64,000 nt of DNA, from the sequence record ON528735; one strand, given 5' to 3'. The DNA comes from Shigella phage ESh25. Each line of letters opens with the position of its first letter. The first letter of the stretch is position 1. The translations under genes and the position numbers were made by a program. Positions 3,440 through 52,327 of the stretch are shown in pieces. The notes beneath the pieces are model-generated. The model was not told where the DNA came from, did not search any database, and saw nothing but the letters and a program-made list of their open reading frames with translations.

Positions 3440-4186
3440 TTATCCTCGGATAAGTTTAAAAATTGAACAATTTAGCGGGTATCCTCTTTTCAGTTTAAGT
3501 TTATCAATAAAAGACAAGTTTTGATACCGCTCTACACCTTGAATAATTTTATCACACATGTCATATTGCATTTCTGCTTCTGACAACTTTTTCACAGTTT
3601 TCCAATCCGAGCCTTTAAGAAGAACGTTCAATTTAACAACTTCAGCGCCTTCTGCTATGCGAGAACCATCAATACGAGCTTTAAGTGCTATAATCGTTAG
3701 CTTAACGTCAGAAGTTTGTTTTGATTTAGAAAGCTGAGAAATGTGTTCAATTCGATTTTCACGTTTTTTCTGTATAGCTTTAATTTGATTATAAGTCTTT
3801 TTGATTTTAGCCCATTTCTTTTCATCTAAATTTAGTTTATGAACTTTTTTCGCAGATGAACGACCAATTCGCAAAGCAAATAAATCACGCTTTTCAATCA
3901 ACTCTTCTAAAGTATAATCAGAACGAAATGTATTATACTTTTTCTTTACTGCAATAACATTCCCTTTAATGTATCCAACGTTATTATCAAAACGTTCTAA
4001 TGATAATTTCTCTCCTTCAATACGATTATCAAAAGGTTCTCCCGAGTAAGCGCAAACTTTCTGATCTAAAATGTTCTTAATGTAATTGAAGTCTAAGTTA
4101 AAATCTTTAGAACGTCTTTTAGCAGATGCCTGAGTGTGCTCTAAACGACGTTTAATTTTACGAATTTGATTATTAGACAGTTTCAT
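3440..4186 (-). CDS. basic, Lys/Arg-rich protein; possibly Srd-like
   Basis: 248 aa; position between modA and dda where T4 has srd; assignment by synteny only. Confidence 0.45.
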   Translation of the reverse strand: MKLSNNQIRKIKRRLEHTQASAKRRSKDFNLDFNYIKNILDQKVCAYSGEPFDNRIEGEKLSLERFDNNVGYIKGNVIAVKKKYNTFRSDYTLEELIEKRDLFALRIGRSSAKKVHKLNLDEKKWAKIKKTYNQIKAIQKKRENRIEHISQLSKSKQTSDVKLTIIALKARIDGSRIAEGAEVVKLNVLLKGSDWKTVKKLSEAEMQYDMCDKIIQGVERYQNLSFIDKLKLKRGYPLNCSIFKLIRG

Positions 4187-45486: not shown

Positions 45487-46500
45487 TCATTTATAATAAC
45501 TTCGGTGGTTTTCAAGATAGACCTTCTCAAGGAAGTCATCCCAGAAACTCATGTCTACTTTTTGCTGCATACCGTTCTTAGAAGCTTCAGTAGATGCTGC
45601 TTCTACTTGATCGACCACATCTTCCAAAAACTCTTGAACTGTTTTAAATGGATGTTTACCCAACTTCACGTCGAGAATAAATGGAGCATCTTTGAGTGGA
45701 TAAACCAAGTCACCAGTTTTGTAAATTTCCAATAGTTGGAGTCCACCACGGCAAGCATGACTCAGAGCTTTCCAGTCAATACCTTCATTGGCTTCGGCCT
45801 TACGAGCACGTTCACCATATTCAGCATCTAATTTGTTCAGTGACTGCTTAAGCTCAATAAGAGAAAGCGTTGTCTGATATTTACGACCCAACACAGTGTA
45901 GAACGTTTGTGGGCCTGTTTTCTCATGATTATGGAACACCCATTCACAGAATTCGTTTTCTGGAAGACGATGCTTAATATCTTCAACTTTATTTCGACGC
46001 TGCTTAATGGAACCGTCTTCTTGGTAATCAACCCATTGCTCAGGGATTTGATTAACTACTTTCAATACATCACGTAATGCAGCCAAACGAGAACCCTTGA
46101 CACCGTATTTAGAAGCTTGCTTGCGGACATATCCTAAATAGGATTTCATGTTAGTCGTATAAAAACGAGAACGGTTGTCTTGGATAAATTTCCATACATC
46201 AGGCAAATCAGATTTAACCACTAGTTCAGGCGGAGTGTGAAGCATATCCAATGCTACAGTTTCACCATCTGCTGCTAATTTAAAGAAATACTTAAGACTG
46301 TATAGTTCATGGTCAATATCATCTTTAGTGTTTTTAGATGATGTGTTGTTAGTGTTTTTACTCATGTGCTCTTTGACATTTCCGATAAGAATATCGCGAG
46401 CAGGAGGAACAAAGATTTCTTTAAAATCTACATCAGATTCTGGGGTAGAAGTTCCATAAAGATGACTACCAAAATAGCTTTTCATTACTGTTTTCATCAT
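45487..46500 (-). CDS. nucleotidyltransferase-fold protein (pol-beta superfamily-like)
   Basis: 337 aa; N-terminal GSHLYGTSTPESDVDF matches G[SG]...D.D NTase signature. Confidence 0.55.
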   Translation of the reverse strand: MMKTVMKSYFGSHLYGTSTPESDVDFKEIFVPPARDILIGNVKEHMSKNTNNTSSKNTKDDIDHELYSLKYFFKLAADGETVALDMLHTPPELVVKSDLPDVWKFIQDNRSRFYTTNMKSYLGYVRKQASKYGVKGSRLAALRDVLKVVNQIPEQWVDYQEDGSIKQRRNKVEDIKHRLPENEFCEWVFHNHEKTGPQTFYTVLGRKYQTTLSLIELKQSLNKLDAEYGERARKAEANEGIDWKALSHACRGGLQLLEIYKTGDLVYPLKDAPFILDVKLGKHPFKTVQEFLEDVVDQVEAASTEASKNGMQQKVDMSFWDDFLEKVYLENHRSYYK

Positions 46501-46970
46501 TCAGCCTTATATTCAATAACAGGACATACTTTAGCTTTACGAGCTTTTAAAAATTCAACGATAACCGATTTCTTGGGTTGAATAGGAGGTAAACCTTTAT
46601 ACGCCCTATCAATATTTTCTACGTGTAAAGCATAATCCTTTTTCCATTTATAATCTTTATATTTTTCACGCAAATGTGCAGGAATAACAAATGAACCGAT
46701 AATAAGTAAAACAACCAAAAGCGCAAGTATAAATGCTGATGGAAGAAGAGTCCATAAACTACCGAAAATAAGCCAACGTTGTAGGCTTTCTGCACAAATA
46801 ATTGTTAGACCTGCGAGTATAGTACATCCGAAAAAAGAAACGAAAAATGTAGGGATAACAATAGACCAAAAGTATGCACACAGTGTCTTAGGTCGTTTCC
46901 ATTCGTCGTTAAACAGTTTGAATAATTTATAGTGCCAAGAGTTTTCATTAATAATCATAATTATAATCAT
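46497..46970 (-). CDS. membrane protein (multi-pass)
   Basis: 157 aa with several hydrophobic helices; ATGA coupling to the nucleotidyltransferase gene. Confidence 0.5.
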   Translation of the reverse strand: MIIIMIINENSWHYKLFKLFNDEWKRPKTLCAYFWSIVIPTFFVSFFGCTILAGLTIICAESLQRWLIFGSLWTLLPSAFILALLVVLLIIGSFVIPAHLREKYKDYKWKKDYALHVENIDRAYKGLPPIQPKKSVIVEFLKARKAKVCPVIEYKAE

Positions 46971-47488
46971 CCTTTCATTGAAGGTGTAACAGTTGTTAAA
47001 TACTTAATCATAGCCTCAGCTTCTGATTTTGATAATGAAATTTCTCCATTGTTTTGACGAATAGAAATAAAATCCGGATGACGGTCACCACCAGCTTTTA
47101 AAACACACATATAAGTATCAGTTTCATCTTCAATATTTGAAATGATTGAAGCAGTTCCACATGAATGCGGTTTTTGATAAATCAATACAGCTTTTCTTCC
47201 GCCATTTGACTGTTCATAAACTTTTAATACATCAAACAAATCACTTCTTTTATCAATAGCTAAAATGTTATTTTCATCTTCAACGTTAAATCCTTCGGAT
47301 ACTTCATAAAGTGTTACCCATAAATCGCCAATATCAATAACAGCGTTCACTTTTCCATGACTTTCAAGAGCATGACAAATTTTCTTGATTTCGTCATAAC
47401 TCATTTTAATAATATCATCTCCTTGAATAAGAAAGATGTCATTTTTAAATTCAACACGAATTAAACCACTTCCACTTGAAATAAACAT
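46967..47488 (-). CDS. hypothetical protein, paralog pair member
   Basis: 173 aa; C-terminus ...SKSEAEAMIKYLTTVTPSM similar to next ORF. Confidence 0.5.
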   Translation of the reverse strand: MFISSGSGLIRVEFKNDIFLIQGDDIIKMSYDEIKKICHALESHGKVNAVIDIGDLWVTLYEVSEGFNVEDENNILAIDKRSDLFDVLKVYEQSNGGRKAVLIYQKPHSCGTASIISNIEDETDTYMCVLKAGGDRHPDFISIRQNNGEISLSKSEAEAMIKYLTTVTPSMKG

Positions 47489-47494
47489 ATTTCC

Positions 47495-48049
47495 TCACTT
47501 TGAAATCATAGTTGGAATGACAGAATCAAGATAATTCTTTAGCGCAATAGCTTCGTCTTTGGTAAATGTGACAATATGTGCTCGAGAATCATCATTTTGG
47601 CGAACAAGTACGACATCGCCATCTTCATAAGAAGTCTTGACATCCAAAGTCGTAGTATAGTTTGCAGCTACTGGATTAATAATGCTAGCACCGCGATCTT
47701 TAGCCCATTGAAGTTTAACCTTTTCGGGTGTTTCGACTGTTTCAGATTCCAAGAATTCTTTCACCTTGGCAACGAATGTTGCCCAATTGTTGATAGAAAG
47801 ACACATAAATTCAGTTTCAATATTACCGCCGTAAAGGCCACGATAAAAACGAACTTGGAGGTCGCCTGTAATATTAGTTACACCGGTAACTCCTGAGGGA
47901 GCATAAGATAAAATCGCAGCCAGTTCCATAGGAAGAATAGTAATACTATCGTCTTCCTGCGTCAGAACGTATACATTATCACGTTTTTCGATAACCAGGT
48001 CACCGAACAAATCAGTTGTTTCAATTACAGCTTTCATATTATTTACCAA
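47495..48049 (-). CDS. hypothetical protein, paralog pair member
   Basis: 184 aa; C-terminus ...TKDEAIALKNYLDSVIPTM. Confidence 0.5.
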   Translation of the reverse strand: MVNNMKAVIETTDLFGDLVIEKRDNVYVLTQEDDSITILPMELAAILSYAPSGVTGVTNITGDLQVRFYRGLYGGNIETEFMCLSINNWATFVAKVKEFLESETVETPEKVKLQWAKDRGASIINPVAANYTTTLDVKTSYEDGDVVLVRQNDDSRAHIVTFTKDEAIALKNYLDSVIPTMISK

Positions 48050-48224
48050 TTAAAGTTTCAATATAAGAATCAAGATTTACTTTAGCTTCTTCCATAAGAA
48101 TTTTGTATTTAATCTTGTTAGCATGTCCGGAGAAAGCTGATTCATCAATAATTGTTGATGTATGAACAGCTCTACTATACGTCTCAATTAATTCTCTTAA
48201 TTTAAAAGCCTGCTCACTTGTCAT
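48039..48224 (-). CDS. small helical protein, family member
   Basis: 61 aa; MTSEQAFKLRELIE... Confidence 0.45.
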   Translation of the reverse strand: MTSEQAFKLRELIETYSRAVHTSTIIDESAFSGHANKIKYKILMEEAKVNLDSYIETLIGK

Positions 48225-48387
48225 TACATACTCCTTTGAACCATATCAATAATGTTATTCACCAGATTATAAGTAAACATTGGGTAATTATATTGAATCA
48301 TCACATACACAACAAACAAAACTTTCATTCTCTTCTCCTTGGCAGTTGACAAGATTACTATACCATAACCTTGCCAACTTGTAAACC

Positions 48388-48561
48388 ATTAAATGGCGTT
48401 TTCAATAAAATTCTGAAGCTTTGTGTGAGCATCAACCATGATTTTCATTTCTTCTTTGGCGAAAGCTGTACCTCTTTCCCGAGAAGAACATTCATAGTCA
48501 GAAACTGCATTAGCATATTCTTCAATTAGTTTCATTAAAAACATCTGCTTTTCAGTTTTCA
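48388..48561 (-). CDS. small helical protein, family member
   Basis: 57 aa by manual translation (MKTEKQMFLMKLIEEY...); below track threshold. Confidence 0.4.
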
Positions 48562-48746
48562 TTATTCCACCTAATCATTTCAAGATATTGAACTAACTTA
48601 GCTTTAGATTTATCCAAATCCTTTTTAGCTGTTGCTATACCGTCGTATGAATATCCTTCACAATGCTCAACTGCTAATTGGTATGAATCTATTTCAATAT
48701 CACGTGCTAATTTAATGATTTTTTCAAACTGTTCACGTGTTAGCAT
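48552..48746 (-). CDS. small helical protein, family member
   Basis: 64 aa; MLTREQFEKIIKLARD... Confidence 0.45.
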   Translation of the reverse strand: MLTREQFEKIIKLARDIEIDSYQLAVEHCEGYSYDGIATAKKDLDKSKAKLVQYLEMIRWNNEN

Positions 48747-48748
48747 AC

Positions 48749-48952
48749 TTAAGCTCTCGTATTATGATCAATAATTTCATCAAGAAACATATCTAACGCT
48801 TCTATAGCATTATCCACTTTAGTTTCAAAGTCTTTAATGCCTTTATTCGAAATACCCGATGAATACCAAGCAAAGTCAATCAGCTCTTCATCTGCTTTAC
48901 GAATTGAAGCCACTAATTCCTTGATTTTATCTGCTTGCTCTATACTAATCAT
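48749..48952 (-). CDS. small helical protein, family member
   Basis: Track ORF trimmed to [14 protein letters not shown]... Confidence 0.45.
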   Translation of the reverse strand: MISIEQADKIKELVASIRKADEELIDFAWYSSGISNKGIKDFETKVDNAIEALDMFLDEIIDHNTRA

Positions 48953-49140
48953 TATTCCACCACATATGACAGAGAGAATATTGCACACGCCATGTGAGTT
49001 GCAACTTCATCACACATATTATAACGTTTCTTAAGAAGTTCTACAAGTTCTTCACTAGTAACTTCATCCATGTCGACGAAAAAATCACCATTAATGATGA
49101 CGTAGATATTTCCTTCTTGATTAAGTGCTTCAATTTTCAT
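48952..49140 (-). CDS. hypothetical acidic protein
   Basis: Track ORF trimmed to MKIEALNQ... after SD AAAGAGGAG; upstream track codons lie in promoter/leader. Confidence 0.45.
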
Positions 49141-49214
49141 GATGTTCTCCTCTTTATCTAATAGTTGTATAGTATCACGGCTCAAACGAAAAGTAAACCG
49201 GTAAAATGAAAAAA

Positions 49215-49230
49215 GTCTCCCGAAGGAGAC
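49215..49230 (-). terminator. intrinsic terminator hairpin
   Basis: gtctcccgaaggagac. Confidence 0.45.
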
Positions 49231-49235
49231 TAATG

Positions 49236-49622
49236 CTATTCGAGGGAAAGAAGATATTTACTTTGGTAAAACATTCCAGTAATATCATCTATCGTGCTTT
49301 GGATGGCTGGAGGCATTTCTTTATAAATGCTGTTAGATTGGTCTAGTATGCGATCAATCATTTTAATTGTGTCGGTAGGAAGTTTACTGGCATCTGGAAT
49401 TGAAGGCGTGTATTTTCTACCAGAATACCCCAAATATTGCTCACCAAATTTATCAATCAAATCTGGCAACTCGGAGAAAATAAAATCGTATGCTTTGTGT
49501 CTAGCATAACTTTTAGTTTCAAAATGTGCAGAATGAAAATAAGCTTGTGCAGCCATTAATAAACCTAAGTATTCATCTGCCTTTGAAGGTTTTCCACTTT
49601 GTGAAAAGTCGCTGAATTTCAT
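49236..49622 (-). CDS. hypothetical protein (rI.-1 position)
   Basis: 128 aa ORF. Confidence 0.5.
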
Positions 49623-49912
49623 TCAGTCTCCAATTTAATGTTCATAATTCTAGCGTATGATTGTGCCATCTCCGCGCCTCGTTCTATACATTCAAAATCA
49701 GAAGAGCACGGGTCATTTTTATAGGTCGTTCTCATAAAACTATAGAACTGTTCAGATGATTCTACGCTTTTATTTTCAAAAAGCATATAAACATGTCTAA
49801 TACCAGATTCCATAAATTTATCAAAATGAGGATCGACATTCGCTTCAATTGGTGGAGATAAAGCAAATGACAATCCTAGCATGGCAAAAAGTGCCGTTGC
49901 TTTTAAGGCCAT
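49619..49912 (-). CDS. rI: lysis inhibition regulator RI
   Basis: 97 aa; signal-anchor MALKATALFAMLGLSFALSPPIEA; recognised as T4 RI. Confidence 0.85.
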   Translation of the reverse strand: MALKATALFAMLGLSFALSPPIEANVDPHFDKFMESGIRHVYMLFENKSVESSEQFYSFMRTTYKNDPCSSDFECIERGAEMAQSYARIMNIKLETE

Positions 49913-49924
49913 AAAGGCCTCCTA

Positions 49925-50137
49925 TCATTTTTGTCCTGTATTTACTTTATGCCGATGCACGGCCTTAACTTTATCAAGGTATTTTTCAAAATTTCGCAAT
50001 CTAGTATAGTCTGCCGGAGATTGGTTGAGTGATACTTCTCGACGCAAAGCTGAAATGATATTTCCAACTTCCCTACGAATTTCATCTAATTGAAGCACAG
50101 TAAGATTGCGAAGTTGCTTTTCAGTTAATTGTAGCAT
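49925..50137 (-). CDS. hypothetical protein (rI.1 position)
   Basis: 70 aa ORF. Confidence 0.45.
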
Positions 50138-50179
50138 ATATACCCCTTTAGTTAGATAAACCTATTTATAACTTTTGCA

Positions 50180-50761
50180 CTAACCGAGCTTTTTAGTTAA
50201 TTCATTCCAATGTTTTCTGCACAAAGAAACATAAATTTCATCACCAATACAGATTTGATTACCTTCTTTAACCGGTGTTCCATCTTCCATTAATCGAGCT
50301 GTCATAATAGCCTTTTTACCACAATGACAAACTGCCTTTAGTTCAATAAGTTTATCTGCAATCGCCAAAAGTTCTTTAGAACCTTCAAATAATTTTCCAG
50401 CGAAATCAGTCCTTAGCCCATAAGCCATAACAGGAACATTATATGTATCAACAATTCGACTTAATTGATGCACCTGTTCAGTTTTTAAAAACTGAGCTTC
50501 ATCTACAAATACACAATGAATATCTTTTTGTGCTTCAGCCCATTTATAGAACTCGAAAATATCCATATCATCTGTAATAATATTCGCTTCCTGTTTAATT
50601 CCAATGCGAGAAACGACTTCACAGACAGAATCACGAGTATCAATAGCAGGCTTAAGAACTAATACACCCATTCCGCGTTCTTTATAATTATGTGCAGCAG
50701 TCAAAAGAGAAGCAGATTTTCCAGCATTCATTGCTGCGTAAGTAAAAATTAAACTCGCCAT
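50180..50761 (-). CDS. tk: thymidine kinase
   Basis: 193 aa; P-loop AMNAGKS, C-terminal Zn ribbon CHCG...C. Confidence 0.9.
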   Translation of the reverse strand: MASLIFTYAAMNAGKSASLLTAAHNYKERGMGVLVLKPAIDTRDSVCEVVSRIGIKQEANIITDDMDIFEFYKWAEAQKDIHCVFVDEAQFLKTEQVHQLSRIVDTYNVPVMAYGLRTDFAGKLFEGSKELLAIADKLIELKAVCHCGKKAIMTARLMEDGTPVKEGNQICIGDEIYVSLCRKHWNELTKKLG

Positions 50762-50770
50762 ATCACCTTC

Positions 50771-50956
50771 TTAAAGCGTATTCACATAAGCTATTAATTC
50801 GTTTTCTTTCTTATCAAACCGATCAGCAAATTCTTCTTGCTGATCGGGAGATAGCGGGCCGTATTCATCATAAAAGGTGTTTGCTTCTGTATGCTCATCT
50901 AGAAGTTCATGGATAAGCTCAAACAATTTATCTTTTTGTTCTTTACTCAGACTCAT
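50771..50956 (-). CDS. hypothetical acidic protein
   Basis: 61 aa ORF. Confidence 0.45.
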   Translation of the reverse strand: MSLSKEQKDKLFELIHELLDEHTEANTFYDEYGPLSPDQQEEFADRFDKKENELIAYVNTL

Positions 50957-51122
50957 ATATTAATTTCCAGGAGTTTTAAAATAATTCGCTTTTGCTTAAA
51001 TATTTCCATAGTTAAATGACCAGTATCTTTTTGACCGATTCCAATGGCAAAACCTTTATTGACAGCGAGTTCAATTAAATTATCAAGCTCACGTAACACT
51101 TCATATTGTAACTCAAAACTAT

Positions 51123-51350
51123 TCATTTCGGTTTACCTTCTTTAACGAAATCAGGATAAGGATAAAATCCTGAATAAAATCCTTCACCTTTATGATTGAT
51201 GCATCCTTTATTAGAACAATAGCACCAATAATCGAAATCACAAGCCATTTCATCATTACATAAAGCAAAAACAACTGGCCATTCACACTTTTCGCAGTGG
51301 GCATTTTTAAGAATACTAGTTTGGCTCATAACCATGTAACCTTTAAACAA
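51123..51350 (-). CDS. Cys-rich small protein
   Basis: 75 aa; HCEKCEW...C...CYC...C; start unverified. Confidence 0.45.
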   Translation of the reverse strand: MFKGYMVMSQTSILKNAHCEKCEWPVVFALCNDEMACDFDYWCYCSNKGCINHKGEGFYSGFYPYPDFVKEGKPK

Positions 51351-51538
51351 TATTCTTCTACATGTTGTTTACGACCTTTCCTATCAATAAAGGTATATTC
51401 AACGAATGTTCCAATATAGTCTTTATCTACATCATGTGGACTATTAATTGGGCATTTAGTACGGCAAATGCGTTCCCATTGACGAATAATTTCCACTTTG
51501 TTTTTAGGATCAAACGGATGCGGGTAATGTACTTTCAT
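51326..51538 (-). CDS. hypothetical protein
   Basis: 70 aa ORF. Confidence 0.45.
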   Translation of the reverse strand: MKVHYPHPFDPKNKVEIIRQWERICRTKCPINSPHDVDKDYIGTFVEYTFIDRKGRKQHVEEYCLKVTWL

Positions 51539-51989
51539 AATCCACCACTATTAAATCAATATCAGGAGTAAACATGTCGATTAATTTAGAAACCTTATCC
51601 CAATCGCCGCCAGCAATACCGCAACCTATGCGTGGAATGTAAATTACTGGTTTAAACAAAAGGGTTTCTGCCTGTAGATTTAATTCTATCATGCAGTTTA
51701 CTAAAGCACCATAATCAAGATTAGGACCCGGTTCGTATTGTGTATACAGGTTATAGCATATACCAAATCCCGTAGGACTATGTTTAAAAACAATAGACAT
51801 ATCGCCTAATTTATCACGAGAACCGTACTCGGTAGTGGTTTTATCTATTTCTAAAATTTTGGGATAGGCTCTTGCTAATTGACCCGCTACGCCAGAGCCC
51901 ATTGTGTGGAAGCAATTGCACCCGTGCGCAATAATATTACCTTGAAGAAATAGGGCGACAATATCGCCCTTGATATATTTTACAATCAT
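51510..51989 (-). CDS. macro-domain protein (ADP-ribose binding/processing)
   Basis: 159 aa; GCNCFHTMGSGVAGQL motif typical of macro domains. Confidence 0.6.
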   Translation of the reverse strand: MIVKYIKGDIVALFLQGNIIAHGCNCFHTMGSGVAGQLARAYPKILEIDKTTTEYGSRDKLGDMSIVFKHSPTGFGICYNLYTQYEPGPNLDYGALVNCMIELNLQAETLLFKPVIYIPRIGCGIAGGDWDKVSKLIDMFTPDIDLIVVDYESTLPASV

Positions 51990-52327
51990 CTAGTACTCAA
52001 TCCTCGATTATAAGAATCTACTAAACGGTCAACCATTGAATGACAAGCGGCTTTATCTTTCTCCTCCGCAACTGAACATTCTAAAGTATTCCACTTTTTA
52101 GCATATCGTTTTAACAATGTATCATTTTTATATCTGCTTGATTTATCTCTTTCTCCGTCTTTATATGCATATATTAATTTCTGCGCAAATTCAGCTTGGC
52201 ATGCTTTATTTTTCCCACAATAATCCGCGGCAGTACGGTTTACATACTCTCTAATTTCAGTATATGATGTATCTGCTAACACAGAAAATGAAATTAATCC
52301 TATACATAAAACCAAAATTTTAGTCAT
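51986..52327 (-). CDS. secreted protein (vs-region)
   Basis: 113 aa with signal peptide. Confidence 0.5.
   Translation of the reverse strand: MTKILVLCIGLISFSVLADTSYTEIREYVNRTAADYCGKNKACQAEFAQKLIYAYKDGERDKSSRYKNDTLLKRYAKKWNTLECSVAEEKDKAACHSMVDRLVDSYNRGLSTR

Follow-up and report, generated by a model that had tools for sequence, protein, structure and literature searches.

The small minus-strand genes mobD.2a, mobD.3 and mobD.4 of bacteriophage T4 have long been annotated, and the ORFs of tk.1 and tk.2 were deposited in GenBank under the early accession X04567 as 'ORF 59.7' and 'ORF 59.9'. The paralogy of their products is already recorded in Pfam (DUF7438) and in PHROG 653, and we are hence dealing with a family that is already catalogued; MobD.3, MobD.4, Tk.1 and Tk.2 have also been tabled together under phrog_653 (PMC11879866 supplements). 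In T4, family members show early expression and are not needed on the laboratory host. RNA of MobD.3, MobD.4, Tk.1 and Tk.2 was classified as early, and the protein as early for the first two and as middle for the other two; mobD.2a, mobD.2 and mobD.5 gave early RNA with the protein not detected (PMC9697503 supplements). Knock-down of mobD.2a, mobD.3, mobD.4, tk.1 and tk.2 with dCas13d (CRISPRi-ART) was scored 'Not Fit' for each gene (PMC11879866 supplements), and a T4 deletion spanning nrdC.11-mobD.3 is viable (PMC9825161). A literature search with the gene names led to a mobD.3-containing deletion and to the mobD.5 transcript serving as control, but to no report on function.

Two further T4 genes have been assigned to the phage's response to bacterial immunity: tk.4 encodes AdfM, an anti-DarTG2 macrodomain, and nrdC.1 is an anti-Septu gene (preprint 2025, bioRxiv 10.1101/2025.11.20.689424). 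The same work reports a T4 insertion screen against several defence systems, in which the DUF7438 genes are unmentioned in the main text (bioRxiv 10.1101/2025.11.20.689424). In this work, we analyzed the corresponding locus of Shigella phage ESh25 in a window of 64,000 nucleotides (record ON528735).

Gene layout and transcription signals

At positions 47400-49700, the window shares 99.6% identity with Escherichia virus CAM-21 and 97-98% with numerous other genomes of Tequatrovirus. Set against the T4 and PE37 annotations, the region is the minus-strand early block nrdC.11 – mobD.x – rI.-1 – rI – rI.1 – tk, with the same gene order as in T4 relative to rI.-1, rI, tk and mobD.1. The locus lies in a variable accessory region of a T-even genome, much as the first-pass annotation had proposed. 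Four minus-strand ORFs of 57-67 aa lie within 48039-48952. The first gene of the operon is mobD.5 (48952..49140, minus strand), which encodes 62 aa, matches phrog_3024 with E=2e-44, lacks a DUF7438 match and does not belong to the family. It is followed on the same strand by the genes for MobD.4 (48749..48952; 67 aa; Pfam E=4.4e-16, 59.4 bits) and MobD.3 (48552..48746; 64 aa; Pfam E=3.1e-16, 59.9 bits; phrog_653), both with T4 orthologs, and for MobD.2a (48389..48562; 57 aa; Pfam E=4.5e-15, 56.2 bits). Next comes mobD.2 (48224..48328, minus strand), also outside the family; its hydrophobic 34-aa product (MKVLFVVYVMIQYNYPMFTYNLVNNIIDMVQRSM) matches T4 MobD.2 in translation and phrog_3515 with E=5e-22, and found no match in Pfam. 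The last of the four family members is a 61-aa protein (48039..48224, minus strand; Pfam PF24219 E=2.8e-14, 53.7 bits; phrog_4859 E=1.3e-37) that corresponds to ORF099 of phage PST.

The operon carries two conserved T4-type early promoters. From the sequence, we read the mobD.5 early promoter as TTTACT-17-TACTAT at 49169..49197 (minus strand), in alignment with T4, RB3 and PST. Just upstream of it, the terminator scan located an intrinsic terminator hairpin with a UUCG loop at 49214..49231 (minus strand) that ends the rI.-1 transcript and is kept in T4, RB3 and PST. Both terminator and mobD.5 promoter are almost identical to their T4 counterparts, and primer extension on T4 at 3 min post infection has detected this promoter experimentally (PMC1702504). 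An early-promoter-like site with a TG extension, TTTACA-17-TATAGT, lies between mobD.2a and mobD.2 (48357..48385, minus strand); with 10/12 it is the best promoter match of the region and is nearly invariant in T4, RB3 and PST. Directly behind it, mobD.2 starts with a strong AAGGAG ribosome-binding site, and the ATG of the 61-aa gene overlaps the mobD.2 stop codon as TAATG, indicating translational coupling. MobD.4 likewise starts at an ATG, at 48952; GGTGGA lies ahead of this codon, and its overlap with the stop of mobD.5 reads TAATG. Transcription of the family genes thus starts at conserved early promoters, their operons are translationally coupled, and their description as early genes holds, also in view of the T4 early RNA and protein data (PMC9697503).

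Some details of the first-pass annotation have to be corrected. It had set the outer limit of the array at 48988, which belongs to a GTG-extended ORF beyond the real ATG start of MobD.4, and it had placed the 57-aa gene at 48388..48561, one base off from 48389-48562. Its tandem array of four consists of real ORFs on one strand, but the array is not seamless because the promoter and the unrelated, conserved mobD.2 separate the 57-aa and the 61-aa genes. The first-pass annotation had also not listed mobD.2, and it had recognised neither the T4 genes mobD.2a/.3/.4 nor an existing Pfam DUF in its small proteins. Moreover, a fifth member had been missed. This Tk.2 homolog of 61 aa (50771..50956, minus strand) is located upstream of tk and matches Pfam with E=1.7e-19 and 70.4 bits, phrog_653 with E=1.2e-26 and our family HMM with E=1.1e-17. 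As it lies beyond tk, the family is organized in two clusters that flank tk-rI.1-rI-rI.-1.

At the DNA level, MobD.4 and MobD.2a share an identical 13-nt ribosome-binding and start context, GGTGGAATAATGA on the coding strand, at 48936-48961 and 48546-48571. In both cases this context lies within the 3'-terminal part of the preceding gene, and it is the sole DNA-level repeat that links family members. The paralogs hence offer no sign of recent duplication or gene conversion, which we rejected since no DNA-level repeats beyond GGTGGAATAATGA connect them.

The surroundings of the two clusters also differ in places from T4. Two tandem paralogs of T4 MobD.1 with 173 and 180 aa are encoded at 46967-47488 and 47495-48037 (both minus strand), and both match PF24449 and PF24448, the N- and C-domains of a 'y05I-like putative transcription factor'; T4 has one copy, and the PST annotation lists MobD.1-1 and MobD.1-2. 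The homing-endonuclease gene mobD of T4 is absent from the window. Instead, a 157-aa ORF is found beside nrdC.11 (46497-46970, minus strand), likely a membrane protein as judged from its long hydrophobic stretches. Between the tk.3 and tk.2 homologs, 50953-51350 (minus strand) contains two genes without T4 counterpart, one for a 75-aa zinc-binding protein (PF23895, E=4e-29) and one for a 57-aa helical protein at 50953-51126 (phrog_3452). Between tk.3 and vs, a 159-aa ORF (51510-51989, minus strand) is by position the homolog of T4 tk.4. Rfam gave no matches in 46000-52000.

Paralogy, distribution and conservation of the family

All four proteins match Pfam PF24219 (DUF7438) end to end with E values in the range of 1e-14 to 1e-16, from 2.8e-14 for the 61-aa member to 3.1e-16 for MobD.3, and score 54-60 bits against a gathering score of 25 bits. 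The claim that the four small genes are paralogous is thereby borne out. In PHROG, they fall into three families, 4859, 2758 and 653, that match each other. T4 Tk.1 and Tk.2 match DUF7438 as well, and a family HMM that includes them retrieved exactly one additional member in the 64-kb window, the protein at 50771-50956, which has the best Pfam score of all. The matches are unlikely to be artefacts, as negative controls do not match. Similarity among the four can be aligned, though with different reach by different methods. In pairwise Smith-Waterman comparisons scored against 2000 shuffles, three pairs were significant, namely the 61-aa protein with the 57-aa protein (z 5.7) and with the 67-aa protein (z 5.6), and the 64-aa with the 67-aa protein (z 3.2); the remaining 3/6 pairs were not. 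From this it follows that pairwise alignment links the four as a chain rather than all-to-all, and that full paralogy requires the profile, which connects all four. The size and architecture expected for DUF7438 were also found: a single domain of 57-67 aa, with two-helix hairpins predicted in both proteins that were modelled. The genes are orthologous to, and syntenic with, those of the T4 type members (the mobD.2a/.3/.4 and tk.1/.2 loci), and the promoters are near-identical. Shuffling or profile comparison rejected rI.1, the 57-aa protein at 50953-51126 and MobD.5 as extra members.

We therefore regard the identity and paralogy of the four ORFs and the fifth as settled at the level of sequence comparison: they are members of the Tevenvirinae-restricted DUF7438, which is represented in T4 by MobD.2a, MobD.3, MobD.4, Tk.1 and Tk.2, and profile and alignment evidence characterizes the five as genuine, ancient paralogs. 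Kept across the paralogs are an N-terminal T/S-x-E-Q, which may serve as a helix N-cap, and core Leu/Ala/Leu/Phe-Tyr positions. Protein surfaces and the inter-helix loop are paralog-specific, and the family alignment contains no conserved stretch of 7-10 residues. The MobD.3 loop motif CEGYSY is conserved. The MobD.4 loop, in contrast, differs in length among phages, and the protein has 67 aa in the window and 60 aa in T4. All members are acidic, with pI values of 4.3-6.1 and net charges of -1 to -10.

The window and T4 carry different sets of these genes. T4 lacks the 61-aa member, which in the window is located between mobD.2 and mobD.1. T4 mobD.2a is frameshifted, with HMM positions 1-33 and 34-59 in different frames (NC_000866 locus, 3997-4178, minus strand), and its annotated 38-aa product ends in out-of-frame residues, whereas the window copy is intact. 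Compared with T4, the window thus has an intact MobD.2a, the extra 61-aa gene and a longer MobD.4 loop, but no Tk.1, and its Tk.2 is a deeply divergent allele with dN about 0.35 versus T4 Tk.2.

Beyond these two phages, DUF7438 appears to be confined to T4-like phages, with 3-6 copies per genome. When 1.84 billion cluster representatives were searched exhaustively with the profile, 24 proteins matched at E<=1e-3; some 20 are single-domain proteins of 49-76 aa, the remainder being false positives, namely long coiled-coil proteins. A word-indexed search yielded 89 clusters, and those with a named source come from T4-like phages or from E. coli/Shigella records on phage-sized contigs. Two distant metagenomic relatives, P0093 and P0103, were not found in IMG/VR or in the GenBank phage set; they lie on contigs of 1.1-1.4 kb only, which offer no useful gene context. 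When copies per locus were mapped with the family HMM in the window and eight other phages, we counted five each in the window, PE37, RB3 and F1, five in T4 including the broken one, six in PST, four in Mosigvirus PHB12, and four and three, respectively, in Gaprivervirus TH54 and Gaprivervirus RZ. Within a collection of 50,697 phage records, Tk.2 occurs in 741, a MobD.4-like protein in at least 504, MobD.2a in 491, Tk.1 in 195 and the 61-aa member in 192.

The first-pass annotation had called the small proteins diversifying, a description that fails at the ortholog level. Nei-Gojobori dN/dS between orthologs is mostly 0.03-0.3, with 0.03-0.11 for MobD.2a and about 0.05-0.2 for MobD.3. Such values correspond to purifying selection, and each paralog is hence a conserved protein. 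Identity between paralogs is 20-30%. Taken from these comparisons, the variation in the family is one of ancient paralog divergence, combined with gene gain and loss, frameshift or decay and loop indels.

Predicted fold and misleading product names

Structure prediction supports the helical character that had been assigned to the proteins. With the family alignment as input, AlphaFold2 modelled the 61-aa protein as an antiparallel α-hairpin with helices 3-28 and 34-60 (mean pLDDT 94.2, pTM 0.77). MobD.4 (67 aa) was predicted as an antiparallel α-hairpin as well, with helices 4-31 and 36-66 (pLDDT 74.3). Each member is thus predicted as an acidic α-helical hairpin of roughly 60 residues. Neither a profile search of PDB sequences nor NCBIfam gave a significant match, and Foldseek found nothing in the PDB at E<=1e-3. 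In BFVD, the fold search led to uncharacterised 54-61 aa proteins of T4-like phages with a TM of about 0.9. Otherwise, fold searches yielded generic hairpins, among which ROP (ColE1 Rom, PDB 1ROP/7KAE) is the closest solved whole protein of similar size. ROP shares the α-hairpin fold with the DUF7438 proteins. Homology at the sequence level was rejected, with an hhalign probability of 0.2% and ROP absent among the PDB sequence matches. De novo designed helical-hairpin homo-oligomers (5J0J, 5J0H) and SSV1 D-63 are whole-chain α-hairpin matches of the same size, yet with Foldseek E values above 0.4 they are geometric analogs only, with no evolutionary or functional link to DUF7438.

Two product names in the databases suggest quite different functions. 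In RefSeq records of related phages, the 61-aa protein is labelled 'helicase loader' (e.g., L007 4501-4686), a name also carried by phrog_4859, and orthologs of MobD.4 and MobD.1 are labelled as molybdopterin-guanine dinucleotide biosynthesis protein MobD (e.g., L002 3850-4053). That these RefSeq and PHROG names are correct we consider effectively refuted. For the 61-aa protein, no homology to T4 gp59, to the AAA+ proteins DnaC/DnaI or to lambda P was detected even at E<=1 to 10, and we know of no helicase loader that is not far larger than a 61-aa hairpin. For MobD.4, we found no homology of the MobA or MobB type; DUF7438 was its only significant Pfam match, and nothing significant emerged from NCBIfam. 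Pfam, NCBIfam and PDB sequences are without any match that connects the proteins to helicase-loader or Mob families, and predicted two-helix hairpins of 57-67 aa are at odds with either name. The 'MobD' label evidently stems from confusion with the nearby T4 gene name mobD, which stands for mobile endonuclease D. Both product names fail every test; they are wrong and should be disregarded.

Possible roles of the hairpins

An isolated hairpin of 60 aa would be unlikely to be stable alone. Hence, the DUF7438 hairpins probably pair with themselves or with one another to give an antiparallel four-helix bundle, in analogy to ROP. Early in infection, such small bundles could bind or inhibit different macromolecules of the host (or the phage) stoichiometrically, and the paralogs may either have distinct targets or be partially redundant, which would hide single-gene phenotypes. 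Given the fold, size, conservation pattern, timing and dispensability of the proteins, we hold it to be the best explanation overall, with a probability of roughly 0.6, that DUF7438 hairpins are small dimerising binders of host or phage factors, possibly in anti-defence. Purifying rather than diversifying selection on the orthologs speaks against this assignment. Its anti-defence component is further weakened by the near-universal presence of Tk.2, MobD.3 and MobD.4 in Tequatrovirus and related genera, with which a housekeeping-type accessory role fits equally well, and by the main text of the T4 defence screen, where these genes do not appear.

The most specific form of this idea, and our leading guess of that kind, is an anti-defence family whose paralogs would each bind directly to another host immune protein and thereby neutralise it, in the manner of many small acidic early phage proteins. 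Early expression and dispensability on K-12 and B laboratory hosts agree with it, and so do the presence/absence polymorphism of the 61-aa member and of Tk.1 and the frameshift in T4 mobD.2a. The proteins are acidic, and tk.4 and nrdC.1 in the neighbourhood are proven anti-defence genes. However, dN/dS lies well below 1, three members come close to being core genes of the genus, and none of these genes emerged as a hit from the defence screens described in the preprint main text. We thus put this guess forward tentatively, as a doubtful rather than a favoured assignment. The first-pass annotation had gone further and taken the genes for typical factors of early host takeover or anti-defence; this role is not supported, and fitness was unaffected when the T4 orthologs were knocked down (PMC11879866). 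One may speculate that the 3-6 hairpins of a phage assemble combinatorially into homo- and heterodimeric four-helix bundles that redundantly inhibit host immunity or other host factors early on. The redundancy of such a combinatorial set would account for the lack of a phenotype after knock-down of, or insertion into, a single gene, and we nonetheless rate this version as improbable.

Other roles appear less probable still. ROP, the closest structural analog among solved whole proteins of similar size, binds RNA kissing complexes. By analogy, the DUF7438 proteins might form four-helix bundles that bind nucleic acids and modulate structures of RNA or DNA, for example, the stability of early mRNAs or intermediates of replication and recombination. 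RNA binding is a feature of ROP, though, and the DUF7438 proteins are acidic; with a net charge of -1 to -10 being unfavourable for nucleic-acid binding, no sequence relation to ROP (hhalign 0.2%) and an α-hairpin fold that is ubiquitous, we consider such a role very unlikely. It is harder yet to believe that some of the ORFs, especially the 57-aa one, are non-functional leftovers in the form of chance ORFs or decaying duplicates. T4 mobD.2a is indeed frameshifted with its protein undetected, and all members are dispensable. Nevertheless, the 57-aa ORF is intact in 489/491 records at >=80% coverage and its dN/dS of 0.03-0.11 is low, the ribosome-binding site and start context of MobD.2a are conserved, and the proteins MobD.3, MobD.4, Tk.1 and Tk.2 have been detected in T4.

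Our analysis reveals no new kind of system and will not surprise a specialist; the phages concerned are among the most heavily sequenced groups. It adds a map of the family with five members in two clusters, the recognition of T4 mobD.2a as a frameshifted pseudogene and of a 61-aa member missing from T4, and evidence against two widely propagated product names. The DUF7438 genes are a reasonable target for multi-gene knockouts, and we suggest that paralog redundancy be removed before they are concluded to be without phenotype. They belong to the large 'dark matter' of the best-studied lytic phage, T4; MobD.3, MobD.4, Tk.1 and Tk.2 are detected as proteins and made early in infection, and hundreds of T-even genomes have retained the family.
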